A DNA stretch of 64,000 nucleotides from Escherichia coli (GTDB taxonomy: Bacteria; Pseudomonadota; Gammaproteobacteria; Enterobacterales; Enterobacteriaceae). The stretch lies in assembly GCF_016026235.1 (NCBI RefSeq), contig NZ_CP065613.1; one strand, given 5' to 3'. The notes below the pieces were generated by a model. That model was not told the DNA's origin. It did not search any database and was given only the letters and a program-made list of their open reading frames with translations. The position numbers and the translations under genes were made by a program. Positions 1,677 to 45,106 of this stretch are shown piece after piece; position 1 is the first letter of the stretch, and each line of letters starts with the position of its first letter.

Positions 1677-1706
1677 AGCGGCCAGTTTCTTTACAAGGAG
1701 TTTTAA

Positions 1707-2759: not shown

Positions 2760-2776
2760 TTCAAAGGAATGAAAAA

Positions 2777-3565: not shown

Positions 3566-3574
3566 GAGGTCTTT

Positions 3575-4630
3575 GTGAAAAGTGCAATGACAAGCTCTCC
3601 GCTGCGGGTCGCGATAATAGGCGCAGGCCAAGTGGCGGATAAGGTTCATGCTTCGTACTACTGCACCCGCAACGATCTGGAACTGGTGGCTGTCTGTGAC
3701 AGCCGCCTTTCCCAGGCGCAGGCGCTGGCAGATAAATACGGTAATGCATCCGTGTGGGACGATCCGCAGGCCATGCTGCTGGCGGTGAAACCTGATGTGG
3801 TTAGCGTCTGCTCACCTAACCGTTTTCATTACGAACATACCCTGATGGCACTGGAAGCGGGCTGCCATGTGATGTGCGAAAAACCGCCCGCCATGACGCC
3901 AGAACAGGCGCGGGAAATGTGCGATACCGCGCGCAAACTGGGCAAGGTGCTGGCCTACGACTTTCACCATCGTTTTGCGCTCGATACGCAACAGCTGCGT
4001 GAACAGGTGACCAACGGCGTTTTGGGAGAGATTTACGTTACCACCGCCCGCGCCCTGCGTCGCTGCGGCGTTCCCGGCTGGGGCGTCTTTACCAATAAAG
4101 AACTGCAGGGTGGTGGCCCGCTGATCGACATCGGCATTCATATGCTGGATGCTGCGATGTATGTGCTGGGCTTTCCGGCGGTGAAAAGCGTGAATGCGCA
4201 TAGCTTTCAAAAGATCGGCACGCAAAAGAGCTGTGGTCAATTTGGCGAGTGGGATCCGGCAACTTATAGCGTCGAAGATTCGCTGTTTGGCACCATTGAA
4301 TTTCATAACGGCGGCATTCTGTGGCTGGAAACGTCATTTGCACTCAACATCCGCGAACAGTCGATTATGAACGTCAGCTTTTGTGGTGATAAAGCCGGTG
4401 CGACGCTGTTTCCAGCACATATCTACACCGATAACAACGGTGAATTAATGACGCTGATGCAACGGGAAATGGCAGACGACAACCGCCATTTGCGCAGCAT
4501 GGAAGCCTTTATCAATCACGTACAGGGCAAGCCCGTGATGATAGCCGACGCCGAGCAGGGGTACATCATCCAGCAACTGGTGGCGGCGTTGTATCAATCC
4601 GCAGAAACAGGGACGCGTGTGGAATTATGA
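3575..4630 (+). CDS. ycjS: Gfo/Idh/MocA-family NAD-dependent oxidoreductase
   Basis: 351-aa ORF, N-terminal Rossmann motif IIGAGQVA; synteny. Confidence 0.88.
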   Translation: MKSAMTSSPLRVAIIGAGQVADKVHASYYCTRNDLELVAVCDSRLSQAQALADKYGNASVWDDPQAMLLAVKPDVVSVCSPNRFHYEHTLMALEAGCHVMCEKPPAMTPEQAREMCDTARKLGKVLAYDFHHRFALDTQQLREQVTNGVLGEIYVTTARALRRCGVPGWGVFTNKELQGGGPLIDIGIHMLDAAMYVLGFPAVKSVNAHSFQKIGTQKSCGQFGEWDPATYSVEDSLFGTIEFHNGGILWLETSFALNIREQSIMNVSFCGDKAGATLFPAHIYTDNNGELMTLMQREMADDNRHLRSMEAFINHVQGKPVMIADAEQGYIIQQLVAALYQSAETGTRVEL

Positions 4631-6894
4631 CCAGGCCAGTAACGTTATCAGAACCCCATTTCAGCCAGCATACCCTGAACAAGTATGCATCGCTGATGGC
4701 GCAGGGGAACGGCTATCTTGGGCTTCGCGCCAGCCATGAAGAAGATTACACGCGCCAGACGCGAGGGATGTATCTGGCGGGGCTGTATCATCGGGCGGGA
4801 AAAGGTGAAATCAACGAACTGGTGAACCTGCCTGATATCTTGGGGATGGAGATTGCCATAAATGGTGAGGTTTTCTCGTTATCCCGCGAAGCCTGGCAGC
4901 GTGAACTTGACTTTGCCAGTGGAGAATTACGCCGTAGCGTTGTCTGGCGTACCAGCAACGGCACAGGTTACACCATCGCCAGCCGTCGCTTTGTTTCGGC
5001 AGACCAACTGCCGCTCATTGTGCTGGAAATCACTATTACGCCACTGGACGCCGACGCGTCAGTGCTGATTTCAACAGGTATCGACGCTACGCAAACCAAC
5101 CACGGTCGCCAACATCTCGACGAAACCCAGGTGCGGGTGTTTGGTCAGCATCTGATGCAGGGGATCTACACCACCCAGGATGGACGCAGTGATGTGGCCA
5201 TCAGCTGTTGCTGTATGGTGAGCGGTGATGTGCAGCAATGCTATACCGCCAAAGAGCGCCGTTTGCAGCAACATACCAGTGCGCAGCTTCATGCAGGCGA
5301 GACAGTGACGTTGCAAAAACTGGTGTGGATCGACTGGCGGGATGACAGGCAAGCCGTTTTAGACGAGTGGGGCAGCGCGTCGCTTCGCCAGCTTGAAATG
5401 TGCGCGCAGCAGAGTTACGACCAACTTCTTGCAGTATCAACAGAAAACTGGCGTCAATGGTGGCAGAAACGTCGTATCACGGTAAATGGCGGCGAAGCGC
5501 ACGATCAGCAAGCGTTAGATTATGCGCTTTATCATCTGCGCATCATGACGCCTGCCCACGACGAGCGCAGCAGCATTGCGGCAAAAGGCTTAACCGGCGA
5601 AGGCTACAAAGGCCACGTTTTCTGGGATACAGAAGTATTTTTGTTACCGTTTCATCTGTTTAGCGATCCGACGGTTGCCCGAAGTTTACTGCGTTATCGC
5701 TGGCACAACTTGCCAGGCGCGCAGGAGAAAGCGCGACGCAACGGCTGGCAGGGCGCGCTATTTCCGTGGGAAAGCGCGCGCAGCGGCGAAGAAGAGACGC
5801 CGGAATTTGCCGCCATTAACATTCGCACCGGGCTGCGGCAAAAAGTGGCCTCGGCGCAGGCGGAACATCATCTGGTGGCCGATATCGCCTGGGCGGTTAT
5901 TCAATACTGGCAGACCACGGGGGATGAAAGTTTCATTGCGCATGAAGGCATGGCGCTACTTCTGGAAACTGCAAAGTTCTGGATTAGCCGCGCGGTGAGG
6001 GTTAACGACCGTCTGGAAATTCATGATGTTATTGGGCCTGACGAATATACCGAACATGTCAATAATAACGCCTTCACCAGCTATATGGCGTATTACAACG
6101 TCCAGCAGGCGCTGAGTATTGCCCGCCAGTTTGGCTGTAGCGACGATGCGTTTATCCATCGCGCCGAAATGTTCCTTAAAGAACTGCGGCTGCCAGAAAT
6201 TCAGCCCGACGGCGTTTTGCCGCAGGATGATTCGTTTATGGCTAAGCCGGCGATTAATCTGGCGAAATACAAAGCGGCGGCGGGGAAGCAAACCATTCTG
6301 CTGGATTATTCACGCGCAGAAGTGAACGAGATGCAAATCCTCAAACAAGCTGATGTGGTGATGCTCAATTACATGCTGCCGGAGCAGTTCTCAGCGGCAT
6401 CGTGTCTTGCCAATCTGCAATTTTATGAACCGCGCACTATTCACGACTCGTCATTAAGTAAAGCAATCCACGGCATTGTTGCCGCACGCTGTGGCCTGCT
6501 GACCCAAAGTTATCAGTTCTGGCGCGAGGGGACTGAAATCGATCTTGGTGCTGATCCGCATAGTTGTGATGATGGTATCCATGCTGCCGCAACTGGCGCT
6601 ATCTGGCTGGGGGCGATTCAGGGTTTTGCCGGGGTGAGCGTGCGTGACGGTGAATTGCATCTCAATCCGGCGTTACCTGAGCAGTGGCAACAGTTGTCTT
6701 TCCCTCTGTTCTGGCAGGGCTGCGAATTACAGGTCACGCTCGACGCGCAGCGTATTGCGATTCGAACTTCTGCGCCCGTTTCACTGCGTTTGAACGGGCA
6801 GCTTATATCCGTGGCTGAAGAATCTGTTTTCTGTTTGGGTGATTTTATTTTGCCCTTCAATGGGACCGCTACCACACATCAGGAGGATGAATGA
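4627..6894 (+). CDS. ycjT: kojibiose phosphorylase (glycoside hydrolase family 65)
   Basis: 755-aa ORF; GH65 size and sequence; overlapping start/stop with neighbours. Confidence 0.9.
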
Positions 6895-7550
6895 AACTGC
6901 AAGGGGTAATTTTCGATCTGGATGGTGTAATCACCGATACCGCGCATCTGCATTTCCAGGCGTGGCAGCAGATTGCCGCTGAAATTGGCATCAGCATTGA
7001 TGCGCAGTTTAACGAATCCCTAAAAGGGATCAGCCGCGATGAGTCTCTGCGGCGCATTCTGCAACACGGGGGCAAAGAGGGCGACTTTAACTCGCAGGAG
7101 AGGGCGCAACTGGCGTATCGCAAAAATCTGCTCTATGTCCACTCACTGCGCGAGTTGACGGTCAACGCTGTTCTACCCGGCATTCGCTCTTTGCTGGCAG
7201 ATCTCCGTGCACAGCAGATCCCGGTTGGGCTGGCTTCTGTCTCCCTGAATGCGCCGACGATTTTAGCGGCGCTGGAGCTGCGCGAGTTTTTCACCTTCTG
7301 CGCGGATGCTTCCCAACTTAAAAACTCGAAACCGGACCCGGAAATCTTTCTCGCCGCCTGTGCAGGGCTGGGCGTGCCGCCGCAGGCATGTATCGGCATT
7401 GAAGATGCGCAGGCGGGCATTGACGCCATTAACGCCAGCGGTATGCGCTCGGTGGGGATCGGCGCGGGCATAACCGGGGCGCAATTACTATTGCCTTCAA
7501 CGGACTCCCTGACCTGGTCGCGGTTATCGGCCTTCTGGCAAAACGTATAG
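6891..7550 (+). CDS. ycjU: beta-phosphoglucomutase (HAD superfamily)
   Basis: 219-aa ORF with HAD motif [10 protein letters not shown] near N-terminus. Confidence 0.9.
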
Positions 7551-7563
7551 CAAAGGAATCAAC

Positions 7564-8646
7564 ATGGCTCAGCTTTCGTTACAACATATTCAAAAAATCT
7601 ACGATAACCAGGTGCATGTGGTGAAGGACTTCAACCTGGAAATTGCCGATAAAGAGTTCATCGTGTTTGTCGGTCCGTCAGGCTGCGGTAAGTCGACCAC
7701 CCTGCGCATGATTGCTGGGCTTGAGGAGATCAGCGGCGGCGATCTGTTGATCGACGGCAAACGAATGAATGACGTTCCAGCCAAAGCACGCAATATAGCG
7801 ATGGTGTTCCAGAACTACGCGTTGTATCCGCATATGACGGTTTACGACAACATGGCGTTTGGCCTGAAGATGCAAAAAATCGCCAAAGAGGTGATTGATG
7901 AGCGGGTGAACTGGGCGGCGCAAATTCTCGGCCTGCGTGAGTACCTGAAACGCAAGCCGGGCGCGCTTTCCGGCGGGCAACGCCAGCGTGTGGCGCTCGG
8001 GCGGGCGATTGTGCGCGAAGCGGGCGTGTTTTTAATGGATGAACCACTCTCTAACCTTGATGCCAAGCTGCGCGTGCAAATGCGCGCAGAGATCAGCAAG
8101 CTGCACCAGAAGCTGAATACCACCATGATCTACGTGACCCACGATCAGACCGAAGCGATGACCATGGCGACGCGGATTGTGATTATGAAGGATGGGATTG
8201 TTCAGCAAGTTGGTGCGCCGAAAACGGTTTATAACCAACCAGCGAATATGTTTGTTGCCGGATTTATTGGATCACCGGCGATGAATTTTATTCGTGGCAC
8301 GATCGATGGCGATAAATTCGTTACGGAAACGCTTAAATTAACCATTCCCGAAGAGAAATTAGCGGTTCTGAAAACACAGGGAAGTTTGCATAAGCCCATC
8401 GTGATGGGAATACGTCCGGAAGATATTCATCCGGACGCGCAAGAGGAAAATAACATTTCCGCCAAAATTAGCGTGGCAGAATTAACCGGTGCGGAATTTA
8501 TGCTCTACACCACGGTTGGGGGGCACGAGTTAGTGGTCCGTGCTGGTGCGTTAAATGATTATCATGCAGGAGAAAATATCACTATTCATTTTGATATGAC
8601 GAAATGTCATTTCTTTGATGCAGAAACGGAAATAGCAATTCGCTAA
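7564..8646 (+). CDS. ycjV: ABC transporter ATP-binding protein (MalK-like), intact
   Basis: 360-aa uninterrupted ORF with Walker A GPSGCGKST, signature LSGGQRQR, Walker B FLMDEP. Confidence 0.9.
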   Translation: MAQLSLQHIQKIYDNQVHVVKDFNLEIADKEFIVFVGPSGCGKSTTLRMIAGLEEISGGDLLIDGKRMNDVPAKARNIAMVFQNYALYPHMTVYDNMAFGLKMQKIAKEVIDERVNWAAQILGLREYLKRKPGALSGGQRQRVALGRAIVREAGVFLMDEPLSNLDAKLRVQMRAEISKLHQKLNTTMIYVTHDQTEAMTMATRIVIMKDGIVQQVGAPKTVYNQPANMFVAGFIGSPAMNFIRGTIDGDKFVTETLKLTIPEEKLAVLKTQGSLHKPIVMGIRPEDIHPDAQEENNISAKISVAELTGAEFMLYTTVGGHELVVRAGALNDYHAGENITIHFDMTKCHFFDAETEIAIR

Positions 8647-8690
8647 ATACAGGGGGAAGGCATTCCCCCAGAATAATACAAGGAACAATA

Positions 8691-9596
8691 ATGAAAAAGT
8701 TATTACCCTGTACCGCACTGGTGATGTGTGCGGGAATGGCCTGCGCACAGGCCGAGGAAAAGAACGACTGGCACTTTAATATCGGCGCGATGTACGAAAT
8801 AGAAAACGTCGAGGGTTATGGCGAAGATATGGATGGGCTGGCGGAGCCTTCAGTCTATTTTAATGCCGCCAACGGGCCGTGGAGAATTGCTCTGGCCTAT
8901 TATCAGGAAGGGCCGGTAGATTATAGCGCGGGTAAACGTGGAACGTGGTTTGATCGCCCGGAGCTGGAGGTGCATTATCAGTTCCTCGAAAACGATGATT
9001 TCAGTTTCGGCCTGACCGGCGGTTTCCGTAATTATGGTTATCACTACGTTGATGAACCGGGTAAAGACACGGCGAATATGCAGCGCTGGAAAATCGCGCC
9101 AGACTGGGATGTGAAACTGACTGACGATTTACGTTTCAACGGTTGGTTGTCGATGTATAAATTTGCCAACCATCTGAACACTACCGGTTACGCTGATACC
9201 CGTGTCGAAACGGAAACAGGTCTGCAATATACCTTCAACGAAACGGTTGCCTTGCGAGTGAACTATTATCTCGAGCGCGGCTTCAATATGGACGACAGCC
9301 GCAATAACGGTGAGTTTTCCACGCAAGAAATTCGCGCCTATTTGCCGCTGACGCTCGGCAACCACTCGGTGACGCCGTATACGCGCATTGGGCTGGATCG
9401 CTGGAGTAACTGGGACTGGCAGGATGATATTGAACGTGAAGGCCATGATTTTAACCGTGTAGGTTTATTTTACGGTTATGATTTCCAGAACGGACTTTCC
9501 GTTTCGCTGGAATACGCGTTTGAGTGGCAGGATCACGACGAAGGCGACAGTGATAAATTCCATTATGCAGGTGTCGGCGTAAATTACTCGTTCTGA
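8691..9596 (+). CDS. ompG: outer membrane porin OmpG
   Basis: 301-aa ORF with signal peptide and aromatic-rich beta-barrel sequence ending in F. Confidence 0.9.
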   Translation: MKKLLPCTALVMCAGMACAQAEEKNDWHFNIGAMYEIENVEGYGEDMDGLAEPSVYFNAANGPWRIALAYYQEGPVDYSAGKRGTWFDRPELEVHYQFLENDDFSFGLTGGFRNYGYHYVDEPGKDTANMQRWKIAPDWDVKLTDDLRFNGWLSMYKFANHLNTTGYADTRVETETGLQYTFNETVALRVNYYLERGFNMDDSRNNGEFSTQEIRAYLPLTLGNHSVTPYTRIGLDRWSNWDWQDDIEREGHDFNRVGLFYGYDFQNGLSVSLEYAFEWQDHDEGDSDKFHYAGVGVNYSF

Positions 9597-15672: not shown

Positions 15673-16638
15673 ATGAGAACCGTTAAGGTATTTGAGGAAG
15701 CCTGGCCCTTACATACCCCGTTTGTGATTGCCCGGGGAAGTCGCAGTGAAGCGCGCGTGGTGGTGGTTGAACTGGAAGAAGAGGGTATTAAAGGCACCGG
15801 CGAATGCACGCCGTATCCGCGTTATGGAGAAAGTGATGCCTCGGTAATGGCGCAAATTATGAGCGTCGTACCGCAATTAGAGAAAGGGCTGACACGGGAG
15901 GAGTTGCAAAAAATTCTCCCTGCCGGCGCAGCACGTAATGCGCTGGATTGTGCATTGTGGGATCTGGCGGCGCGAAAACAGCAGCAATCGCTGGCTGATT
16001 TGATCGGCATAACGCTTCCCGAGACAGTCACCACTGCACAGACGGTAGTCATCGGTACGCCTGATCAGATGGCCAATAGCGCATCAACACTCTGGCAGGC
16101 CGGCGCGAAATTATTGAAAGTGAAGCTGGATAACCATCTTATCAGTGAGCGGATGGTGGCAATTCGCACAGCTGTGCCCGATGCCACGCTGATCGTTGAT
16201 GCAAATGAATCATGGCGTGCAGAAGGGTTGGCGGCACGTTGCCAGCTATTGGCGGATTTAGGCGTTGCTATGCTTGAACAACCGCTTCCTGCGCAGGACG
16301 ATGCGGCACTGGAGAATTTTATTCATCCGTTACCGATTTGTGCTGATGAAAGTTGTCATACTCGTAGCAATCTGAAGGCGCTGAAAGGGCGCTATGAGAT
16401 GGTTAACATTAAGCTCGATAAAACCGGGGGGCTGACGGAAGCGCTGGCGCTGGCGACTGAAGCACGTGCACAAGGTTTTCGTCTGATGCTGGGCTGCATG
16501 TTGTGTACCTCTCGTGCCATTAGCGCCGCTTTACCGCTGGTGCCGCAGGTCAGTTTCGCCGATCTTGACGGACCGACCTGGCTGGCGGTAGATGTGGAAC
16601 CGGCGCTTCAGTTCACGACGGGCGAATTGCATCTTTAG
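15673..16638 (+). CDS. ycjG: L-Ala-D/L-Glu epimerase (enolase superfamily)
   Basis: Start at MRTVKVFEEAW within longer ORF; synteny. Confidence 0.85.
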   Translation: MRTVKVFEEAWPLHTPFVIARGSRSEARVVVVELEEEGIKGTGECTPYPRYGESDASVMAQIMSVVPQLEKGLTREELQKILPAGAARNALDCALWDLAARKQQQSLADLIGITLPETVTTAQTVVIGTPDQMANSASTLWQAGAKLLKVKLDNHLISERMVAIRTAVPDATLIVDANESWRAEGLAARCQLLADLGVAMLEQPLPAQDDAALENFIHPLPICADESCHTRSNLKALKGRYEMVNIKLDKTGGLTEALALATEARAQGFRLMLGCMLCTSRAISAALPLVPQVSFADLDGPTWLAVDVEPALQFTTGELHL

Positions 16639-17341
16639 GATGCCAGCGCAGCAAGTTTGCCATCGCAAAGAGATATTTTTCGCTGGCTTCGTCGGAGGAG
16701 ATGGGCGGAAACTCTGCGGTGATGCAATGCAAGTTCAGATCTGCACACCAACTGCCGAAAGAGCCAGGCGTTTCATAACCGACGCTGGTTACCAGAGGCA
16801 ATTCAAACGCCTGAGCCAGCCATTCGCCTAATTCGCTGTGTCTGGGATCTTCAATACAGGCCAGTGGATCGTGGAATGAGACCACCCAGGCAGGTTGAAT
16901 GCGGTGTATAAGCTGGCACAGCGCCTGGGTTTCAGGTTCGGAGCCAGGTTTGTCACCAGTCAGTAATACGACATCACGTTCTTCAGCGGCGCTGTTCCAG
17001 CGATAAACCGTTTCACCTTCCTTCCAGTTTGCCGCCGGAAAGTTTCTGTTTAAATCCACACCATTAGCATTGGCCCGTAACCCCAGCTGGCAGCCGTCAG
17101 GATTCACACACAGCACCACATGATGGCGGCGCAAAGAAGGTGTCAAAGTCCGCAGAGCACAGGAGAGCGTGACGACCGAAGAGTTTTCATCACCGTGAGT
17201 GCCAGCCAGAATCAAACCACTTTCGCGACTGGCTGCAGGGGCCGGAAACCAGATTAACGGCGCGCCCAATAATGAACGTCCGTAATGTTCTGTTCCGGGC
17301 GGAAATGCGCCGCGTTCGGCGCGTGGGCGGGTTACGGTCAT
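16613..17341 (-). CDS. mpaA: murein tripeptide amidase (zinc carboxypeptidase family)
   Basis: Start at MTVTRPRAERG; convergent 26-bp overlap with ycjG end. Confidence 0.85.
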   Translation of the reverse strand: MTVTRPRAERGAFPPGTEHYGRSLLGAPLIWFPAPAASRESGLILAGTHGDENSSVVTLSCALRTLTPSLRRHHVVLCVNPDGCQLGLRANANGVDLNRNFPAANWKEGETVYRWNSAAEERDVVLLTGDKPGSEPETQALCQLIHRIQPAWVVSFHDPLACIEDPRHSELGEWLAQAFELPLVTSVGYETPGSFGSWCADLNLHCITAEFPPISSDEASEKYLFAMANLLRWHPKDAIRPS

Positions 17342-17631
17342 GATCGTCTCTGGTTCAGGAAGTATTACAGGCAGTGTTGTGCAAATTTTGCGGATTATCA
17401 AATCCTTTTCTTCAACGCTATGTCATCGATCTTGTATCACTTTTTTGCCGGAAGTTGTTTGTATTTTTATTGATGTGCAGATATTAGAATTGTCGTAATG
17501 TTATATACATGGCGTATTTTATTCTTACTGGTTCTACACATGTTAATCGCATCTGATTGATCAGTTCACCTTAATAAGTTTAATAAATCGTACTGCACAT
17601 AGTACAGTACGATGGTGGCTATATAATTGAT

Positions 17632-18270
17632 TTACATGAAGAATGGCTTATCGCCATCAGTCCCGGGTTGATTGATGCCTATATTCTCATCAATGTGTTT
17701 CTCAGGTTTATCGATGATATCTGTAATTAATGCTGCGACACTCTTACGTGATACGATCGTACCTTTGAATGGTTCATTGCGTGAGGTAAGCTCATAATCA
17801 ATAATATCTTCATCCGTCAGCCAGGCAGGGCGAAGAATTGTATATTCCAGTCCAGAAGCCTCAATTGCATCCGCAGCCCTGCGGAATGGTTTTAGGGGCT
17901 CACCAATAACTGCATTATTCCATTCGCCAAATTTTCCAGGAACTTCATCATAAATGCCGAGGGAAAGAACAAAGATCAGACGTTTAACATCACAGGCTTT
18001 CATCGCAGCGATCACTGAATTTGCCTGAATATCTAAATCTTCCCCCGTAAGGTTGGCATACACAATATCCTGTCCCTGCATGGCCTGCTTCAGTGCTGCA
18101 TGATTCAGTACATCCCCCATAATAATCTGGCTATTAGTTGGATAGGGTTTGTGTATTTTTGCTGGCTGACGAGCAAATAAAGTTTGTTTAATGGTTTGTT
18201 TATCTGCCAGTTGATTAATCACATGGCGGGCTATCTGACCGCCAGCACCAAGAATGAGTACATTTTTCAT
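17632..18270 (-). CDS. NAD(P)-binding NmrA-like protein
   Basis: N-terminal Rossmann motif MKNVLILGAGGQIARH; lies between mpaA and the hydrolase genes. Confidence 0.7.
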   Translation of the reverse strand: MKNVLILGAGGQIARHVINQLADKQTIKQTLFARQPAKIHKPYPTNSQIIMGDVLNHAALKQAMQGQDIVYANLTGEDLDIQANSVIAAMKACDVKRLIFVLSLGIYDEVPGKFGEWNNAVIGEPLKPFRRAADAIEASGLEYTILRPAWLTDEDIIDYELTSRNEPFKGTIVSRKSVAALITDIIDKPEKHIDENIGINQPGTDGDKPFFM

Positions 18271-18870
18271 AATATTTCTCATGAAACTTATCACAGATGG
18301 GTGTTGAAAAAAGGAATAACTTTTTCCAGCTCCTCCTGAACAGCTTCCGGTTTGTCATACAGTTCATAATGTGAGAAATCGGGTAATGAAACTAACTGAC
18401 GATCCTGCGAAACCATCGCCCGGCCATAGACTTCCAGTCCATCACGATAAGCACCGAAGGCACCGACTTTTTCACCAACTACTACCATCACCGGCTGAGT
18501 CAGTAACACTTCAGTAAATGCGAAGGCATCCCAGGCCAGCGTTTTCTGTGCATGTGAGAACAACATTTTTGTCGCACCTCCCGGTTGTTGCCCGCGTGGT
18601 GTTTTATAGTAGTCAGTTGCTTCATAAACATCGCGTTCGGTCAGTCCATGGGCTTTTGCTGCATCCAGGCTGGCGGGAAGTAATTCGTTGATCTGTAATT
18701 CTCCACCACGAGCCTCTTTGGTTCGTTGCGACGCCATTGCATTCAATGCGCCAATCGGATCGTAATTGCTGAAACCTTCCCGAAAAAGACGCCCGATATT
18801 AACACCCGTAATACTCACTACAGCTTTAATTCGTTTTTCTGTCAGCGCGGCATTAATGGCATAGCCACCC

Positions 18871-20320
18871 GTTACTTTATTCGTACCCCTTATAATGGGG
18901 TGTTAGCCAGCCAGACCCGGCATGATTACTGCCCCCAGTCGTCCATGATCCGGGGGGTGATGTCACCGGGTCTGGTGGGGCGCTGGTAACCGCTAATAGG
19001 GGTCAGGTCAGGCACTTTTGCCGGGACCGTCTGTAACGTGGATGCCGGTACCTGCTCCCCGTGGTTATCTGGTTAACCCATATACAAGGGAGACAGAATG
19101 ACCGAATCCAGCGATTACGAATCCGTCCAGGTCTTTATCGGCGTTGATGTCGGTAAAGATACGCATCACGCTGTTGCCATTAATCGTTCAGGTAAACGCC
19201 TGTTCGATAAAGCATTACCCAACGACGAAAACAAACTCAGGTCGCTAATATCTGACCTGAAACAACATGGTCAGATACTGCTGGTTGTTGATCAGCCAGC
19301 TACCATCGGTGCGTTACCTGTCGCCGTTGCCCGCTCAGAAGGAGTCCTTGTCGGATACCTCCCTGGACTGGCCATGCGCCGCATAGCCGACTTACACGCC
19401 GGTGAAGCTAAAACTGATGCTCGTGACGCTGCCATCATTGCCGAAGCTGCCCGTACCCTGCCTCACGCGCTACGCACGCTGAAACTGGCTGACGAGCAAA
19501 TCGCCGAACTCTCCATGCTCTGCGGCTTCGATGATGATCTTGCCGCACAGACAACGCAGGCCAGCAACCGTATCCGCGGCCTTCTGACCCAGATACATCC
19601 GGCACTGGAGCGCGTTCTCGGTCCGAGACTTGAGCACCCGGCGGTACTCGATCTTCTCCAGCGATATCCCTCACCAGAAAAACTCGCTTCGCTGGGTGAG
19701 AAGAAGCTGGCAGCCCAGCTCTGCAAACTTGCGCCTCGTCTGGGTAAACGCCTTGCAGCAGACATAGCTCAGGCACTGGCCGAACAAACCGTCGTCGTTC
19801 CCGGCACGAATGCCGCTGCCGTAGTACTGCCACGTCTGGCACTCCAGCTCATCACGCTGCGTAAGCAAAGAGACGAGGTGGCGCTTGAGGTAGAACAGCG
19901 AGTTCTTGCTCACCCTCTTTACCCGGTCCTGACCAGTATGCCCGGAGTCGGTGTCAGGACCGCAGCCAGACTCCTCACCGAGGTCGCCTGCCGCGCCTTC
20001 GCCTCTGCCGCACATCTCGCTGCTTATGCTGGCCTTGCGCCGGTAACTCGGCGATCCGGCTCGTCAATACGCGGTGAGCATCCCTCGCGACGGGGTAATA
20101 AAGCTCTCAAACGGGCGTTGTTCCTGTCGGCCTTCGCCGCGCTCAGGGATCCGCTCTCCAGGGCTTACTACACCCGCAAAATGAGTCAGGGAAAACGACA
20201 CAATCAGGCGCTTATCGCCCTGGCGAGACGACGCTGCGACGTTCTGTTCGCCATGATGCGCGACGGGACTTTTTATACCCCGCAGGGGTCATAACATGCT
20301 TGACAACTTAATAGGGGCAC
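18871..20320 (+). mobile_element. IS110-family insertion sequence (about 1.45 kb, no terminal inverted repeats seen)
   Basis: Limits set by loss of hydrolase homology on both sides; 227-bp 5' leader, transposase ORF, 26-bp 3' end. Confidence 0.75.
19098..20294 (+). CDS. IS110-family transposase (DEDD N-domain plus C-terminal domain)
   Basis: 398 aa; N-terminal FIGVDVGKDTHHAV and C-terminal MPGVGVRTAARLL motifs; RBS aagggag. Confidence 0.85.
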   Translation: MTESSDYESVQVFIGVDVGKDTHHAVAINRSGKRLFDKALPNDENKLRSLISDLKQHGQILLVVDQPATIGALPVAVARSEGVLVGYLPGLAMRRIADLHAGEAKTDARDAAIIAEAARTLPHALRTLKLADEQIAELSMLCGFDDDLAAQTTQASNRIRGLLTQIHPALERVLGPRLEHPAVLDLLQRYPSPEKLASLGEKKLAAQLCKLAPRLGKRLAADIAQALAEQTVVVPGTNAAAVVLPRLALQLITLRKQRDEVALEVEQRVLAHPLYPVLTSMPGVGVRTAARLLTEVACRAFASAAHLAAYAGLAPVTRRSGSSIRGEHPSRRGNKALKRALFLSAFAALRDPLSRAYYTRKMSQGKRHNQALIALARRRCDVLFAMMRDGTFYTPQGS

Positions 20321-20670
20321 CCCCCCACACACACCCAGCACGCCAATGCGTTCAGCATCAACATATGGCAGAGTTACTGCATAATCGATAACACGGCTAA
20401 TATCCTCTACGCGCTGTGTCGGATCTTCTATCCAACGAGGCTCCCCACCAGATTCTCCCTGGAAACTGGCGTCATAAGCGAGAACGACATAGCCTTTTTC
20501 AGCCAATGCCTTGCCATAGATATTGCCAGACGTCTGCTCCTTACAACTGCCAAAAGGATGGACGCTGATAATCGCCGGATACTGTTTTGACTCATCAAAA
20601 TTTGGTGGAAACTGAATATTGGCAGCAATATGCCAGGCCATATCACTATTGCGGATTTGAATATGTTTCA

Positions 20671-21591
20671 TTACAGAGTTTCCTCAAAGAACGGAGCTAA
20701 TACTGAAATTGCTTCAGCCACATAGGCTTTGCCGTCATAAAGATCCATATGGTTTGCGCCTTCAACAATGTGATAGCGTTTATCCTGGCTTGATGCCCGA
20801 TCGTACAGGTCGTCACTCATCCATTTGCTCCCTGCCTGGCTGCCCGCCACAATCTGCGTCGGCTGAGTCAGGTACACTTCCGCCATATGGTAAGCATCAT
20901 AGGTAATAATCTGGTTAAGGCTGCGCAAAGTAGCGTAACCCGGTGCTGTTGGATACTGCGCGCGAGGGGTGTGGTAATACTCCCAGGCCTGACGCAGTTC
21001 TTCGTTCGGCGCATCGGACTCCTTCATTGGTGCCAGTGGCATAATGGCGTATTCTTCGCTGCTAATATCGCTGGTTCGGGCGTTTGAGCCAGCTTCAATG
21101 TGTGGCAGAGCATCAATAGATTTCACATTGTTTTCCCAACCATTGCGGAACATCGAACCAATATTGACCGCACTAACGGTACCGATGGCCTTGATGCGGC
21201 GATCCTGAATTGCAGCATTGGCTGTATATCCTGCACCGGCACAAATTCCCATCGCACCAATTCGGGTATTGTCGACATAAGAAAGCGTTGTCAGGTAATC
21301 AATCACGGCACTGACGTCTTCAGTACGAATGTATGGGTTTTCTAACTGACGCGGCTCGCCGCCACTTTCACCCTGATAAGATGCGTCATAAGCAATAGTG
21401 ACAAATCCCTTTTCCGCCAGTTTTTCGGCATAGGTCCCGGCCGTTTGTTCTTTAACGCCCCCACCTGGGTGAGATACCACAATTGCCGGATATTGACGGG
21501 TTTCATCAAATTTTGGAGGAAAATAGATCACTGCAGACAAAGAGATGGTTGGATTATTGCTGTTAGTGAAGCTGACTTTATTATTCATCAT
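20671..21591 (-). CDS. ycjY: alpha/beta hydrolase
   Basis: Intact ORF divergent from pgrR; ATGA overlap with the downstream paralog. Confidence 0.75.
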   Translation of the reverse strand: MMNNKVSFTNSNNPTISLSAVIYFPPKFDETRQYPAIVVSHPGGGVKEQTAGTYAEKLAEKGFVTIAYDASYQGESGGEPRQLENPYIRTEDVSAVIDYLTTLSYVDNTRIGAMGICAGAGYTANAAIQDRRIKAIGTVSAVNIGSMFRNGWENNVKSIDALPHIEAGSNARTSDISSEEYAIMPLAPMKESDAPNEELRQAWEYYHTPRAQYPTAPGYATLRSLNQIITYDAYHMAEVYLTQPTQIVAGSQAGSKWMSDDLYDRASSQDKRYHIVEGANHMDLYDGKAYVAEAISVLAPFFEETL

Positions 21592-21728: not shown

Positions 21729-22628
21729 ATGAAGCGTGAAGAGATCGCTGATCTGATGGCGTTTGTCGTCGTTGCAGAGGAGCGTAGCTTCACTCGCGCA
21801 GCAGCCCGCCTGAGCATGGCGCAGTCAGCTTTAAGCCAGATAGTGCGCCGTATAGAAGAACGATTGGGATTGCGGCTTCTGACGCGAACCACGCGCAGTG
21901 TTGTACCCACTGAAGCGGGCGAGCATCTTTTGTCTGTTCTTGGCCCTATGCTGCATGACATAGATTCTGCCCTGGCATCCCTGAGCGATCTGCAGAACCG
22001 CCCATCCGGGACAATACGTATTACTACTGTAGAACATGCAGCAAAAACGATATTGTTACCAGCCATGCGCACATTCCTGAAATCACACCCTGAAATTGAT
22101 ATTCAGCTTATCATTGATTATGGTTTGACTGATGTCGTTTCTGAACGTTTTGATGCAGGCGTCCGTCTGGGTGGGGAGATGGATAAAGATATGATCGCCA
22201 TTCGAATCGGGCCAGATATACCAATGGCTATTGTTGGCTCACCGGATTATTTTTCTCGCCGAAGTGTTCCAACGTCAGTGTCACAATTAATAGATCATCA
22301 GGCAATTAATTTGTATCTTCCCACATCGGGTACAGCAAATCGCTGGAGATTAATACGCGGTGGACGTGAAGTTCGTGTTCGCATGGAAGGTCAGCTTTTA
22401 CTGAATACGATAGACCTGATCATTGATGCTGCAATTGATGGGCATGGATTGGCGTATCTACCTTATGATCAGGTTGAGCGGGCTATTAAAGAAAAAAAAC
22501 TGATACGTGTTTTGGATAAATTCACACCAGATTTACCCGGTTATCACCTGTACTATCCACACCGTCGACATGCTGGCTCGGCATTCTCATTATTTATAGA
22601 TAGGCTGAAGTATAAAGGTGCTGTTTAG
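21729..22628 (+). CDS. pgrR: LysR-family transcriptional regulator
   Basis: 299-aa ORF; N-terminal HTH LMAFVVVAEERSFTRAAARLSMAQSALSQ. Confidence 0.85.
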   Translation: MKREEIADLMAFVVVAEERSFTRAAARLSMAQSALSQIVRRIEERLGLRLLTRTTRSVVPTEAGEHLLSVLGPMLHDIDSALASLSDLQNRPSGTIRITTVEHAAKTILLPAMRTFLKSHPEIDIQLIIDYGLTDVVSERFDAGVRLGGEMDKDMIAIRIGPDIPMAIVGSPDYFSRRSVPTSVSQLIDHQAINLYLPTSGTANRWRLIRGGREVRVRMEGQLLLNTIDLIIDAAIDGHGLAYLPYDQVERAIKEKKLIRVLDKFTPDLPGYHLYYPHRRHAGSAFSLFIDRLKYKGAV

Positions 22629-23203
22629 CACTACTTGCTGATACATTAATTTAATTCTTCTCTTAACGTATTCTCAGTTCCTTTCAACGTTTTGGTTATT
22701 TTTTATTCTTCGTACAATGGCGACAGATGCTGATTATGATACCGAAAACTGGTTTGAACGTGTGAAGCCCGAACGTAGTGTTCGGTGTTCTATGTGCTTT
22801 GCCGCATTTTGGCGTCTATTATTTACACTAAATCTGATTTAATATATTGATACATAAAACATTTTATGTTTCCTGTGTCACTTTTTTGATGGAAGTTGTT
22901 TGCATTTCTTTAAGGCGAAACAAATAATTACGCATCAATTTTAATGTCGGTTAGAGGGAAACTTATGAAGCACTCTGTTTCAGTCACGTGTTGTGCGCTG
23001 TTGGTCAGCAGCATTTCTCTTTCGTATGCTGCAGAAGTTCCGAGCGGCACAGTACTGGCAGAGAAGCAGGAGCTGGTGCGCCACATTAAAGATGAGCCTG
23101 CGTCGCTGGATCCCGCTAAAGCCGTGGGCCTGCCAGAGATTCAGGTCATTCGCGATCTGTTTGAAGGACTGGTGAATCAGAACGAGAAAGGGGAGATTGT
23201 CCC

Positions 23204-24496
23204 CTGAGGAATCCCCAGAAAACAAGACAGGCATAGTGAGATGTGATCTAATTGATTGTGCTAACAATTTCAAGGAGATCACCACTATGCCTGCACGTTC
23301 ATTATGCCAAAATTTCCTTAACAATATACTGGCCCCTTTGCATCTTTACCGTCAAAAATCACTGATTGACGCAACTAATGCTGTAATAAATGGCGCTTCC
23401 CTCACACTTACCAGTATCGGGCGTCATTTAACCGGTACGGCATCAGTTAAAAACAAAATAAAGCGGGTGGATCGACTGTTGGGGAATCGACATTTGCAAA
23501 ATGAGGTTTCCACCATTTTTCAGCGAATTACCCAAAAGATTACGCGGGGAATGTCTCGTGTTGTGATACTCATTGACTGGAGTGCTTATCATGCCTCTCG
23601 TTTTCAGCTTTTGCGGGCAAGCCTGGCATGTGACGGGCGTTCTTTACCGTTGATGAGTTGTGTCGTTCCATCATCACAGACAGCGAATGCAGATGTACAT
23701 GAGCGTTTTCTGGAATCGCTTGCTGAGTGCTTTTCCCCGGGACTGATGTCATTGTTATTACAGATGCCGGTTTTCAGGGGCGATGGTTCCAACAGCTCCG
23801 CTCCCGTGGCTGGACCTATATTTGCCGGGTACTGGGCAATCATTATTACAATGTTGGTAATGGCTGGGAAAAGGTGTCGGACTCAGGCACAAAAGCATCA
23901 ACGACAGCAATTTATTTAGGTGAAGGCCTGCTGGGTCGAGATAAAAATGCACAACATGAAGGGCATTTTTATCTTTATAAAAGTAAGCCTAAAGGTCGTA
24001 GATTTAAACGCTCGAAGGAAAGAGCAACCAGACCATCGGTGACGGCTAAAGCTCGTACTGCCGGGAAATCACCATGGTTTATTTTCACAAACAGTACTGA
24101 GTTCTCGCCAAAACAGGTAATGAAATTATACAGCCGTAGAATGCAAATTGAGCAAAATTTCAGGGATGAAAAAAATCCTCGCTGGGGATTTGGACTACGG
24201 TTTGGTGCCAGTCATTCATCCGGGCGGGTCACGGTATTGAGTCTGATCGCAACATTAGCCAGTATCATTATGTGGTTAAGCGGTTTCAGCCTGGAAAACA
24301 AAGGGATACATCATAAATATCAGGCAAATACAGTGAAGCACAGGCGAGTCATCTCGTTATTAAAACTGGCGGAGAATGTGATTCGACATTCTCCACTCAT
24401 ACTAAACACACTGTCACTTGACGCAGGGCTGAAAGTTCTACAGCAACGGTATACCAATATGATAATGGTTTACTAAATTTTCTGGGGATCCCTCAG
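23204..24496 (+). mobile_element. IS4-family (IS10-like) insertion sequence, copy 1
   Basis: Terminal inverted repeats CTGAGGAATCCCCAGAAAA / TTTTCTGGGGATCCCTCAG; 10-bp direct repeat AGATTGTCCC on both flanks. Confidence 0.85.
23287..24476 (+). pseudogene. IS10-like transposase, frameshifted in copy 1
   Basis: One C missing from the C5 run near 23747 relative to copies 2 and 3; ORF splits into 23197-23919 and 23727-24476. Confidence 0.8.
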
Positions 24497-25931
24497 AGAT
24501 TGTCCCCGGCGTTGCGACTCAGTGGAAAAGTAATGACAACCGTATCTGGACTTTTACCCTGCGCGATAACGCAAAATGGGCGGATGGCACACCGGTAACG
24601 GCGCAAGATTTTGTCTACAGCTGGCAACGTCTGGTGGACCCGAAAACGCTATCGCCATTTGCATGGTTTGCCGCGCTGGCGGGAATCAACAACGCACAGG
24701 CGATTATTGATGGTAAAGCTACGCCAGACCAGCTTGGCGTCACCGCAGTTGATGCCCATACTTTGAAAATTCAGCTTGATAAACCGTTGCCGTGGTTTGT
24801 GAATTTAACCGCTAACTTTGCCTTCTTCCCGGTGCAAAAAGCCAACGTAGAAAGCGGTAAAGAGTGGACGAAACCCGGAAATCTGATCGGCAATGGCGCT
24901 TATGTTCTTAAAGATCGCGTAGTCAATGAAAAACTGGTCGTGGTACCGAATACCCATTATTGGGATAACGCCAAAACGGTGCTGCAAAAAGTGACTTTCC
25001 TGCCAATTAATCAGGAATCCGCAGCCACTAAGCGTTACCTCGCGGGGGATATTGATATCACCGAATCCTTCCCGAAAAATATGTATCAGAAGCTGTTGAA
25101 GGATATTCCGGGGCAGGTTTATACGCCGCCGCAGCTCGGGACCTATTATTATGCGTTTAACACGCAAAAAGGGCCGACGGCAGATCAGCGCGTTCGCCTG
25201 GCATTAAGTATGACGATAGATCGCCGCCTGATGACCGAAAAAGTGTTGGGAACGGGCGAAAAGCCAGCGTGGCATTTTACACCAGATGTTACCGCCGGAT
25301 TTACGCCGGAACCTTCGCCGTTTGAACAAATGAGTCAGGAAGAACTGAATGCGCAGGCAAAAACTTTGTTGAGCGCAGCTGGTTATGGTCCGCAAAAACC
25401 GCTGAAGCTGACGCTTTTGTATAACACTTCAGAAAACCATCAAAAAATTGCGATTGCTGTAGCATCGATGTGGAAAAAGAACCTTGGCGTAGATGTTAAA
25501 TTGCAAAATCAGGAATGGAAAACCTATATCGATAGCCGTAACACCGGCAATTTTGATGTTATCCGCGCCTCGTGGGTGGGGGATTATAATGAACCCTCCA
25601 CTTTCCTGACATTATTAACGTCAACGCATTCAGGAAATATTTCACGCTTTAACAATCCGGCATACGACAAAGTTCTGGCCCAGGCATCGACGGAAAATAC
25701 CGTTAAAGCGCGTAATGCCGATTACAACGCGGCAGAAAAAATCCTCATGGAGCAAGCACTGATTGCACCAATTTATCAATATACCAATGGACGATTAATC
25801 AAGCCGTGGCTGAAAGGTTATCCCATTAATAACCCGGAAGATGTGGCGTACAGCCGGACTATGTATATTGTGAAGCATTGATGTGATGGGAACTGGCGTT
25901 ACCCTTGTGGATAACGCCAGTGATGTCTGAT

Positions 25932-27513: not shown

Positions 27514-28464
27514 TTAATCGTCTTCTTCGTCATCCAGCTCAACGGGTGTCTGATACTGGTCAGGTTTAATGACCAGCAGGTCGCAGCGAAGATGATCAAT
27601 CACCTGTTCCGCCGTGTTGCCGAGGAATGCTGCTGAAATACCGGTACGTCCTACCGTGCCCAGAACCACAATCCCCGCCTGTAAGTGCTCCGCCAAATCA
27701 GGAATCACCTCTTCTGGCAGACCTTTTTCTACGTGCGTCATGTTTTCATTAATGCCGAATTTCTGCCGCAGAGCTTTCATTGCCAGCAAATGTTGCCCAC
27801 GAATGGCATCGTTATAAACGCTCGGATCAAATTCCGGCAGTTCAATCGCGATATTAATTGGCGTTACTGGGTAAGCGCCAACCAGATGAACTTCGGTATG
27901 GTTGACTTGTTCTGCCAGTTCGATCGTCTCTTTGACCAGTTTTTCATTGAGCGCATTATGATACGGCTCTTCACTGGCGAGATTCACCGCCACCAGCGCC
28001 TTACCTCCTTCCGGCCACGGCTGGTCTTTCACCATCCACACCGGGCTTGGGCATTTGCGTAACAGATGCCAGTCCGTTGGCGTAAAAATCACCGCTTCCA
28101 GACGGTCATGTTGGTGCGCCATTTTTAGCACCAAATCGTGCCCGCCGCTGATCACTTCCTGAATGATGGCTTCGAAAGGACGGTTATGCCAGACCACTTT
28201 AATTTCAATGGGAACGCCAGCATTGAGATAATATTTTGCCTGCTCGTGGATCCAGGCTGTACGCTGGCTGATGACGCCCTGACGCATAGCCGTACGTTCG
28301 TCCGGGGAGAGCAGGGTGGTCATTTCGTATGAGAAGTCATAGATCGGCAAAAAGGCTTTAATTTTGCCACCAATCCGTTGATGTAAATAAACAGCTCGCC
28401 GCAATGCTGGTTGGTCGTCCTGGTTAGGATCGATAACAACGAGCATGTTCTGATACATAGCCAT
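27514..28464 (-). CDS. uspE: tandem-domain universal stress protein E
   Basis: Start at [15 protein letters not shown] within longer ORF; two Usp domains. Confidence 0.9.
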
Positions 28465-30078: not shown

Positions 30079-30112
30079 CCGTTCTCTCTTAAGACAAACG
30101 TGGGTAAATCCC

Positions 30113-31406
30113 CTGAGGAATCCCCAGAAAACAAGACAGGCATAGTGAGATGTGATCTAATTGATTGTGCTAACAATTTCAAGGAGATCACCACTATGCC
30201 TGCACGTTCATTATGCCAAAATTTCCTTAACAACATACTGGCCCCTTTGCATCTTTACCGTCAAAAATCACTGATTGACGCAACTAATGCTGTAATAAAT
30301 GGCGCTTCCCTCACACTTACCAGTATCGGGCGTCATTTAACCGGTACGGCATCAGTTAAAAACAAAATAAAGCGGGTGGATCGACTGTTGGGGAATCGAC
30401 ATTTGCAAAATGAGGTTTCCACCATTTTTCAGCGAATTACCCAAAAGATTACGCGGGGAATGTCTCGTGTTGTGATACTCATTGACTGGAGTGCTTATCA
30501 TGCCTCTCGTTTTCAGCTTTTGCGGGCAAGCCTGGCATGTGACGGGCGTTCTTTACCGTTGATGAGTTGTGTCGTTCCATCATCACAGACAGCGAATGCA
30601 GATGTACATGAGCGTTTTCTGGAATCGCTTGCTGAGTGCTTTTCCCCCGGGACTGATGTCATTGTTATTACAGATGCCGGTTTTCAGGGGCGATGGTTCC
30701 AACAGCTCCGCTCCCGTGGCTGGACCTATATTTGCCGGGTACTGGGCAATCATTATTACAATGTTGGTAATGGCTGGGAAAAGGTGTCGGACTCAGGCAC
30801 AAAAGCATCAACGACAGCAATTTATTTAGGTGAAGGCCTGCTGGGTCGAGATAAAAATGCACAACATGAAGGGCATTTTTATCTTTATAAAAGTAAGCCT
30901 AAAGGTCGTAGATTTAAACGCTCGAAGGAAAGAGCAACCAGACCATCGGTGACGGCTAAAGCTCGTACTGCCGGGAAATCACCATGGTTTATTTTCACAA
31001 ACAGTACTGAGTTCTCGCCAAAACAGGTAATGAAATTATACAGCCGTAGAATGCAAATTGAGCAAAATTTCAGGGATGAAAAAAATCCTCGCTGGGGATT
31101 TGGACTACGGTTTGGTGCCAGTCATTCATCCGGGCGGGTCACGGTATTGAGTCTGATCGCAACATTAGCCAGTATCATTATGTGGTTAAGCGGTTTCAGC
31201 CTGGAAAACAAAGGGATACATCATAAATATCAGGCAAATACAGTGAAGCACAGGCGAGTCATCTCGTTATTAAAACTGGCGGAGAATGTGATTCGACATT
31301 CTCCACTCATACTAAACACACTGTCACTTGACGCAGGGCTGAAAGTTCTACAGCAACGGTATACCAATATGATAATGGTTTACTAAATTTTCTGGGGATC
31401 CCTCAG
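30113..31406 (+). mobile_element. IS4-family (IS10-like) insertion sequence, copy 2
   Basis: Same terminal inverted repeats; 10-bp direct repeat GGTAAATCCC on both flanks; 1294 bp. Confidence 0.85.
30196..31386 (+). CDS. IS10-like transposase (IS4 family), intact
   Basis: 396 aa from MPARSL; NKIKRVDRLLGNRHL and IEQNFRDEKNPRWGFGLR regions resemble the IS10 transposase. Confidence 0.85.
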   Translation: MPARSLCQNFLNNILAPLHLYRQKSLIDATNAVINGASLTLTSIGRHLTGTASVKNKIKRVDRLLGNRHLQNEVSTIFQRITQKITRGMSRVVILIDWSAYHASRFQLLRASLACDGRSLPLMSCVVPSSQTANADVHERFLESLAECFSPGTDVIVITDAGFQGRWFQQLRSRGWTYICRVLGNHYYNVGNGWEKVSDSGTKASTTAIYLGEGLLGRDKNAQHEGHFYLYKSKPKGRRFKRSKERATRPSVTAKARTAGKSPWFIFTNSTEFSPKQVMKLYSRRMQIEQNFRDEKNPRWGFGLRFGASHSSGRVTVLSLIATLASIIMWLSGFSLENKGIHHKYQANTVKHRRVISLLKLAENVIRHSPLILNTLSLDAGLKVLQQRYTNMIMVY

Positions 31407-31545
31407 GGTAAATCCCCGGACCTATCGGCAGACCAACAAGATACCACGCCAGCAACATCAGCAGCCATACCACCAAAAAGATAAGCGGATAGGGCAAGAC
31501 TAACGAATAGTAAGTACCCAGTTTCGCGTCTGGTTTGTCGCAGTC
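31407..31545 (-). pseudogene. abgT: 3' remnant of aminobenzoyl-glutamate transporter gene abgT
   Basis: Hydrophobic C-terminal tail KPDAKLGTYYSLVLPYPLIFLVVWLLMLLAWYLVGLPIGPGIY; the flank before the IS completes it as GIYPRLS-stop next to ogt. Confidence 0.5.
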
Positions 31546-44757: not shown

Positions 44758-45106
44758 TGGTCACTCCAAAATTTTCAAGCTTGTTGGCAATCATCATTGC
44801 GATGTCAGGGATTGCAGGCGCATAGGCTATGCACGCAGGATTCGCACATAAACCGTAAACCGCCGCAATCAACACCTGTTTTTTCCAGTTGAGTTCATCT
44901 TCGCCAGTTTCATTATTGCTATCATTATGCTGATCGCTGCCAGCGTTCTCCGGTAACAAATCATCAGCTTTTCCGTTTTCTTCGGCTCTTCTTCCTGTGC
45001 TTCATCTGGTTTTTTTTCGTCAAAAGTTTCCTGATAAGTTGCGTCTCCCATCACCGCGCCACAGTCAGGGCAGTTATCCTCGCCAGTCTGATTGCAGGGT
45101 GTTCCC

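Follow-up and report, generated by a model that had tools for sequence, protein, structure and literature searches.

Why does a sequence of 32 nucleotides occur twice, in the same orientation, in the 64,000-nucleotide stretch of Escherichia coli DNA analysed here (the window), once beside mpaA and once beside mppA? The first copy, TCACTTTTTTGCCGGAAGTTGTTTGTATTTTT (copy A; 17437-17468, + strand), is bounded by the start of mpaA (17341, minus strand) and by an NmrA-like SDR gene whose 3' end is at 17632, and the second, TCACTTTTTTGATGGAAGTTGTTTGCATTTCT (copy B; 22878-22909, + strand), is found 56 nt upstream of the start of mppA (22965). An earlier note on this DNA had described the pair as 28/32 identical, both on the + strand, and had assigned one copy to the mpaA side and the other to the mppA side; our alignments bear out each of these points, with the copies differing at 4/32 positions. 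The similarity reaches 7 nt further left (17430-17466 against 22871-22907, 37 nt at 86% identity), giving a full repeat of ~39 nt (Table 1), and the flanks outside this extended repeat show no similarity between copy A and copy B. The note had left two readings of the pair side by side, namely a shared cis-regulatory element, for which the regulator PgrR was named as a candidate, and a small repeat.

As far as copy number is concerned, the second of these is correct. A degenerate pattern with 3 mismatches allowed finds just two sites within the 64-kb window, for an expectation of 0 in shuffles. A search of 5418 E. coli genomes with the 39-nt query (E<=10) returned 10654 places, with a median of 2 per genome and a maximum of 4, rather than matches at many unrelated loci, the outcome that the earlier note had named as refuting its reading; K-12 carries both motif copies. 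A dispersed repeat of the REP, ERIC or MITE type is ruled out by these two places per E. coli genome. An RNA element or a terminator was likewise ruled out, as neither copy A nor copy B has a match in Rfam and the motif folds no better than its shuffles.

The origin of the two copies becomes apparent from species that have one. We anchored 80 loci on MpaA, using one genome per species, and located the neighbouring genes by tblastn. In nearly all of these species mppA lies directly upstream of mpaA and is transcribed divergently from it. Alignment across the Enterobacteriaceae, a check that the earlier note had proposed, recovers a single motif copy in this adjacent mpaA-mppA spacer, which measures ~180-200 bp at such empty sites in 68 or more other Enterobacteriaceae and non-coli Escherichia. 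The genera concerned include Citrobacter, Enterobacter, Klebsiella, Kluyvera, Leclercia, Lelliottia, Trabulsiella and others, and within Escherichia the empty site is found in E. albertii, E. whittamii and three further non-coli lineages. As the reference we used the 182-bp spacer of Escherichia sp. MOD1-EC7003, the closest empty-site genome: its positions 1-125 match window 17342-17466 at 97%, and its positions 89-182 match window 22871-22964 at 88%. The duplicated overlap is thus 37-39 bp, and the junction arithmetic closes as 88+39+55 = 182. The E. coli arrangement is the ancestral spacer broken by a 5.4-kb insert (~4 kb without ISEc20), and the mpaA side and the mppA side share the motif because part of the spacer was duplicated around that insert. 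Judged from these alignments, the two copies go back to a single sequence of the ancestral divergent mpaA-mppA spacer; the motif pair is not a regulatory element acquired in common by mpaA and mppA. Chance similarity of two AT-rich intergenic sequences, which the presence of other 29-44-nt imperfect two-copy repeats in the window might have brought to mind, is refuted and retains next to no probability, as both copies are orthologous to one and the same single-copy empty-site sequence with exact junction arithmetic.

Table 1. Features of the mpaA-mppA region in window coordinates, with the basis of each assignment
Feature	Position	Strand	Basis
mpaA (murein tripeptide amidase), left host gene	16613..17341	-	ORF, translation, FDAARGOS_946 annotation
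Ancestral mpaA-proximal spacer (B side)	17342..17429		97% identical to empty-site positions 1-88
Copy A, attL-like core	17430..17468	+	matches ancestral positions 89-125
Left insert end, non-cassette; possible P'-arm remnant	17469..17560		absent from empty sites
NmrA-like SDR oxidoreductase, cassette gene	17632..18270	-	annotation; Pfam NmrA/NAD_binding_10 on orthologues
Second alpha/beta hydrolase gene, ISEc20-split	18292..20671	-	two annotated pseudogene halves
ycjY (alpha/beta hydrolase), cassette gene	20671..21591	-	annotation
pgrR (LysR-type regulator), cassette gene divergent from ycjY	21729..22628	+	annotation
queH pseudogene remnant, right insert end	22717..22803	+	PGAP annotation in FDAARGOS_946, RM13514
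Lambda attP P-arm-like segment, adjoining copy B on left	22793..22870	+	lambda alignment
Copy B, attR-like core	22871..22909	+	aligns with lambda 'int 3'; holds mppA -35-like hexamer
Predicted sigma-70-like mppA promoter	22899..22928	+	consensus scan, 9 of 12
Ancestral mppA-proximal spacer (B' side)	22910..22964		aligns to empty-site positions 128-182
mppA 5' part	22965..23192	+	cut by IS4-family element at ~23193-24507

Using the gene annotation of the near-identical strain FDAARGOS_946, we obtained the gene order ycjG, mpaA, SDR gene, split hydrolase with ISEc20, ycjY, pgrR, queH remnant and mppA. The second hydrolase gene, which is intact and encodes 310 aa in other strains and genera, holds ISEc20 (IS110 family; 18871-20311, with the transposase at 19098-20294 on the + strand), a later insertion inside a cassette gene; the full arrangement with ISEc20 in the hydrolase gene occurs in 9/5426 genomes. 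The left-end segment (17469-17560) is single-copy and present in 2940/5426 E. coli genomes, and a strain variant of this end differs solely by an 18-bp indel. At the other end, the remnant of queH (epoxyqueuosine reductase) comprises ~29 codons with a 37-nt match to a plasmid queH; it has no match in NCBIfam and is too short for one. Just 3' of the SDR gene, on the minus strand, there is a hairpin CGTACTG-N9-CAGTACG followed by a T-rich run (17590-17612), which falls narrowly outside the loop-length limit of our scan and is removed by the K-12-type deletion described below; it could be the terminator of the SDR gene.

The window further holds three ~1.3-kb IS4-family copies (23193-24507, 30102-31416 and 45096-46410), two of them direct and one inverted, which are identical at 100% over 766-1314 nt. 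The first of these breaks mppA 228 nt after its start, and the window strain therefore probably lacks a functional MppA.

The genes of the insert have relatives that travel together elsewhere. PgrR homologues of 88-89% identity are found in Klebsiella, Raoultella, Kluyvera, Enterobacter, Citrobacter and Salmonella, some of them labelled as plasmid-borne. In 5/5 neighbourhoods examined, pgrR is divergent from a ycjY-hydrolase-NmrA/SDR set while the surroundings are unrelated; these contexts come from Raoultella, Salmonella, Kluyvera and plasmid-like contigs of Klebsiella. The cassette takes the form of a 4-gene or a 6-gene module, the longer of which adds a short-chain dehydrogenase and an Old-Yellow-Enzyme-type reductase, a pair that often follows the pgrR module. 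This composition points to a role of the module in catabolism or detoxification rather than in the cell wall. On plasmid-like contigs of the Klebsiella variicola type, the cassette adjoins TerB/BrxC-like defence genes and a TacA/acetyltransferase toxin-antitoxin pair. At the DNA level, the window and the cassette loci are homologous only between 17561, which corresponds to where the next gene ends in Raoultella, and the stop codon of pgrR at 22628, such that 17469-17560 is not homologous to the Raoultella/Klebsiella cassette. The 92-bp left end and the 242-bp right end (queH remnant and P arm) fall outside the cassette homology and hence represent the context of the vehicle or donor. queH stands beside pgrR in none of the five other cassette contexts (Raoultella, Klebsiella, Salmonella, Kluyvera and a further contig). 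An integrase fragment 100 bp after pgrR in Kluyvera was considered and found to have no link to the insertion, its spacer being unlike the P arm or the core. Taken together, pgrR and ycjY are not original to the murein-peptide locus: they are the cargo of a mobile cassette.

If the motif was present before the insert, what is its native function? It holds blocks conserved across 68 species, ATCAAYTTT, AAG and TTTGCATTTC, and a -10-like block, GAAACAAATAATTAC, lies eight variable bases beyond TTTGCATTTC. TTTGCATTTC scans as the -35 of an mppA promoter (a consensus match only), for which the predicted elements are TTTGCA (22899-22904) and AATAAT (22923-22928) with an 18-nt spacer; both hexamer regions are at least 80-90% conserved across 68 species. 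Nearer to mpaA, we observed two further strongly conserved blocks in the same 68 species, GGCAGTGTTGTGCAAAA and TAATCAAAT.GTTTC (17370-17410), whose conservation is stronger than that of the motif itself and which may be the mpaA promoter or an operator.

These observations bear on the possibility that the two copies are a shared cis-regulatory site under selection, through which mpaA and mppA are jointly controlled by PgrR or some other single regulator. Such a site would agree with the position of the ancestral copy in a divergent promoter region with conserved blocks, with the -35-like scan of the TTTGCATTTC-type block and with the fact that the products of mpaA and mppA both act on murein tripeptide; however, the insertion junctions fully account for the duplication, and copy A is ill-suited to the role. 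While it keeps the mpaA upstream sequence to ~127 bp from the ATG, it is without the downstream half of the mppA promoter and the conserved sequence after the motif, including the -10-like GAAACAAATAATTAC; its orientation is away from mpaA, and the promoter scan predicted no promoter there. We therefore hold a shared site to be very improbable as the reason for the two copies, and what survives of the cis-regulatory suggestion is that the ancestral single copy was promoter DNA.

pgrR has been published as a regulator of peptidoglycan recycling, and its regulon entry lists ycjY-ymjDC-mpaA as repressed in K-12 (PMC5934670), which speaks for a role at this locus. The SELEX targets of PgrR, however, name the ycjY/ycjZ spacer, with no site upstream of mppA or mpaA (PMC5934670). 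Moreover, 68 species have kept the motif without a pgrR at their mpaA-mppA locus, the gene itself being part of the insert. The motif is older at this locus than pgrR, which came as cargo, and hence is not to be explained by PgrR; the idea of a PgrR operator, prompted by the earlier note's naming of PgrR as a candidate, was rejected.

The reported control of mpaA may nevertheless have a simple source in the history of K-12. In this strain, two deletions reduce the SDR and the second hydrolase genes to ymjC and ymjD, with just the ymjC remnant retained of the former. One of the deletions begins directly after copy A, with the ymjC ORF passing through the motif (locus 3695-3740). Deletions of the K-12 type also take the SDR gene's 3' portion together with the spacer that follows; by subtraction, ~2300 genomes lack the left-end segment in this manner. 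We infer that the effect of PgrR on mpaA may depend on read-through that the K-12-type deletion could allow, and the control of mpaA by PgrR in K-12 may be a by-product of the insertion.

We then considered what kind of event could have produced the insertion. Between copies A and B we found no integrase, excisionase or any other phage gene, and the insert ends have no terminal inverted repeats, their similarity to each other not exceeding that of shuffles. Target duplications of IS elements and transposons are short, 2-14 bp, and come with terminal inverted repeats and a transposase; a duplication of this type was rejected, because the terminal inverted repeats are missing and 37-39 bp is too long.

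A sequence search unexpectedly matched the right insert end to 48.5-kb lambda genomes. In the phage collection, window 22793-22887 aligns with lambda 27637-27731 at 77% identity (E 2e-9), and the matches to this segment in HK629 and HK630 are annotated as attP. The local alignment continues through the motif (lambda 27637-27747 against window 22793-22906), with a score of 79 versus 20.2 +/- 2.7 for shuffles. In the lambda record, the P-arm Int sites int1 and int2 end at 27634, the core site int3 occupies 27714-27747 and the crossover 27724-27738. The homology therefore starts right after int1/int2, spans the proximal P arm and sets the motif on the core Int-binding region; the 78 bp to the left of copy B are proximal P-arm-like, and the part with the int1/int2 arm sites is absent. 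In lambda it is this proximal part of the P arm to which Xis, Fis and IHF-H2 bind. The core is laid out alike in the two, as CACTT-N9-AAGTTG in the window and CAGCTT-N9-AAGTTG in lambda, and the motif thus presents what look like inverted core-type Int sites around a short overlap.

The differences between each copy and the empty site have a sidedness of their own. In copy B the changes lie in the left part alone (positions 3, 7 and 19-20, also 5 in K-12), whereas in copy A they lie at the right end alone, from position 33/37 onward. Each copy has hence changed on the side facing the P arm or the insert, a pattern that fits attR (copy B) and attL (copy A) hybrids. We consider it likely, with good confidence, that the copies are the common core of a fossil lambda-type attachment-site pair, that is, the scars of an insertion, and we read copy A as B-O-P' (attL-like) and copy B as P-O-B' (attR-like) on the basis of these comparisons. 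The pair is filed as a fossil and not as a working att site because no integrase gene stands beside the attL-like core.

Other parts of a lambda-type element were sought with negative results. Window 17456-17640 shows no similarity to the P' arm of lambda (27732-27860), and the distal P arm (the lambda P1, P2 region) is missing at the right insert end, where the queH remnant is found instead. Phage records contain nothing beyond lambda-type P arms at 75-77%; no viral contig carries this core, nor was MpaA found on viral contigs; no metagenome contig has the reconstructed attP junction; and no intact prophage is present at mpaA in ten distinct E. coli neighbourhoods. A further weak point concerns the positions at which the cores read CC or AT, since in the lambda register this difference falls inside the 7-bp overlap. 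Heterology in the 7-bp overlap normally blocks Int recombination. The 'AT' may be a later mutation rather than derived from attP, given that Escherichia sp. E1V33 has CC in both copies.

Alternatively, the insertion might have come about without the motif acting as an att site, through illegitimate or microhomology-mediated joining with duplication of the target or through homologous recombination with a pre-arranged donor, with the lambda-attP-like segment as unrelated cargo that abuts copy B by chance. We regard both this course of events and such a chance placement as unlikely. An absent integrase and an undetectable P' arm would be expected of it, the cassette moves among differing contexts in other genera without visible att sites, and the K-12-type junction of E1V33 (see below) shows that the region also spreads by homologous recombination; yet it does not account for a lambda homology that runs through the repeat in register, placing the motif on the core Int-binding site, for the left/right pattern of differences that fits attL/attR hybrids, or for a 39-bp duplication, without terminal inverted repeats, that far exceeds those of the transposase type.

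Under the attachment-site reading, the following course may be envisaged. In the ancestor, mpaA and mppA would have been adjacent and divergent, and the single core, overlapping the -35 region of the mppA promoter, would have served as attB. A lambda-family integrative element whose attP shared ~30-39 bp with the spacer would have recombined with it, most plausibly through integrase catalysis. The accessory region adjacent to its attP would have carried, or later received, the pgrR/ycjY/hydrolase/SDR cassette together with queH; of these options, we infer that the cassette arrived together with the lambda-type element. Integration would have duplicated the core into copy A (attL) by mpaA and copy B (attR) by mppA, and the right flank of copy A would by the same logic be P'-derived. 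Copy B retains the mppA -35-like element at its original position, and what now lies upstream is the P-arm remnant. Of the phage genes, the integrase included, nothing would have survived later deletions, which spared the cassette and ~78 bp of P arm. The cores would now act merely as short direct repeats, between which recombination would have made the sequences alike in some strains and excised the islet precisely in others.

Other breaks are seen in the same spacer. In Citrobacter sp. 18056, a 2866-aa ORF (locus 282-8882) ends 118 bp upstream of mpaA and stands in place of mppA and most of the spacer; here the break falls after the AATCAAATAGTTTCC block and not at the motif. Salmonella enterica subsp. 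arizonae/diarizonae have a 3.1-3.4-kb cdtA-cdtB-cdtC-like islet between mpaA and mppA, with the Pfam domains CDtoxinA, Exo_endo_phos and CDtoxinA. In a Salmonella diarizonae locus (L025), the ancestral sequence breaks within the motif after ...CTGCCGGA, and different sequence stands in place of the mppA-proximal promoter part. Close to its right end, the Salmonella diarizonae islet has a CAGCTTTTTTGAT... string that resembles the lambda core, a similarity that is not significant; the arizonae/diarizonae islet as such matches neither lambda attP nor the E. coli P arm significantly and lends the E. coli reading no support.

The fate of the islet within E. coli was followed by counting alleles with diagnostic queries and by inspecting four empty genomes (GF4-3, CP131, 2014C-3075 and 2013C-4282). 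A precise empty site, with mpaA directly beside mppA, is present in 173/5426 complete E. coli genomes. In GF4-3 and CP131, the left flank of copy A runs into 'GAT', a variant that is elsewhere characteristic of copy B; in 2014C-3075, 'GCC' is combined with a right flank of the E. coli type, and the right flank of 2013C-4282 is outgroup-like. Among the empty genomes, 14 have the chimeric 'AT' core, in two flank haplotypes, and ~147 have 'CC'. The latter, which make up most of the empty E. coli alleles, are indistinguishable from never-filled alleles and could be ancestral. The copy-A flank with 'AT' occurs in 108 genomes in all; as this total includes the 14 empty ones, 'AT' is present in both copies in ~94 filled genomes. 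O145:H28 strain RM13514, for one, has 'GAT' in both (locus 6013 and 10021), with 30 identical bases. The 'AT' in both copies of filled genomes looks like gene conversion between the cores. MpaA itself is identical (WP_000219122.1) in filled and empty strains. As far as allele comparison can tell, this distribution shows exchange between the copies, in the form of both conversion and precise deletion.

The allele of Escherichia sp. E1V33 combines CC in both copies with the K-12-type deletion junction, and the core and right flank of its copy B are of the type of its own clade. This suggests an import through homologous recombination, one end of which lay within or close to the motif. The ymjC junction is identical in K-12 and E1V33, which belong to different species-level lineages, and this implies that the K-12-type junction allele has been transferred between Escherichia lineages. 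We had also considered 'AT' versus 'CC' as a strict marker of the two copies, and this was dropped in the light of RM13514 (AT/AT) and E1V33 (CC/CC).

It is conceivable that the islet is still mobilisable: a resident prophage might provide a lambda/HK022-type integrase in trans, or RecA might act on cores homogenised to 30 identical bp, and the islet would be excised and re-inserted reversibly, though we would call this very unlikely. If true, E. coli populations would switch between a shared divergent mpaA-mppA promoter region and PgrR-controlled read-through over mpaA, in a manner that resembles the reversible excision of wzy in Salmonella.

These findings change the reading of pgrR as a gene of the murein-peptide locus: it belongs to a cassette that landed in the mpaA-mppA promoter spacer. 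The landing site would be newly recognised as an attachment site of the lambda type, placed in a promoter region that is conserved among enterobacteria. The ~3% of complete E. coli genomes that lack the islet precisely offer natural, isogenic-like contrasts for the expression of mpaA and mppA. Islets flanked by att sites are common. Our literature search, which was incomplete, found no description of an attachment site or islet at mpaA-mppA, and this instance appears to be undescribed while being of an ordinary kind.

How, then, does the locus compare with known systems? With the attP/attB and attL/attR sites of lambda it shares a single core in the empty site and a direct repeat around the insert, ~78 bp of proximal P arm which together with the core is 77% identical to lambda 27637-27747, a core layout like lambda C-O-C', and the placement of the cargo beside the P arm, where the b region of lambda sits. 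It differs in the length of the shared identity (~30-39 bp versus 15 bp in lambda), in its target (the mpaA-mppA promoter spacer versus gal-bio) and in that the islet lacks int, xis, the distal P arm (P1, H1, P2) and a recognisable P' arm. HK022 is a sister system of lambda Int with a different core specificity. The cryptic prophages of E. coli (e14, Rac and DLP12) parallel the islet in an integrase-type insertion, large deletion and the retention of cargo co-opted by the host, but they still have phage genes and usually an integrase, whereas the pgrR islet is betrayed by its cores and one partial arm. The wzy locus of Salmonella Typhimurium has 113-bp identical attL/attR-like direct repeats, and its excision, circularisation and re-acquisition were shown experimentally (PMC12074656). 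Like the pgrR islet, it is a small non-phage islet without an integrase of its own between direct repeats, one of which lies in the promoter region of a neighbouring gene, and it undergoes natural precise deletions that leave one repeat (PMC12074656). In contrast, the repeats of the pgrR islet are ~39 bp with 4-6 mismatches in most strains, and its loss is deduced from genome comparison alone. The wzy locus is the best published analogue of the present state of the pgrR islet; by function and by sequence, lambda attP/attB is the closest system.
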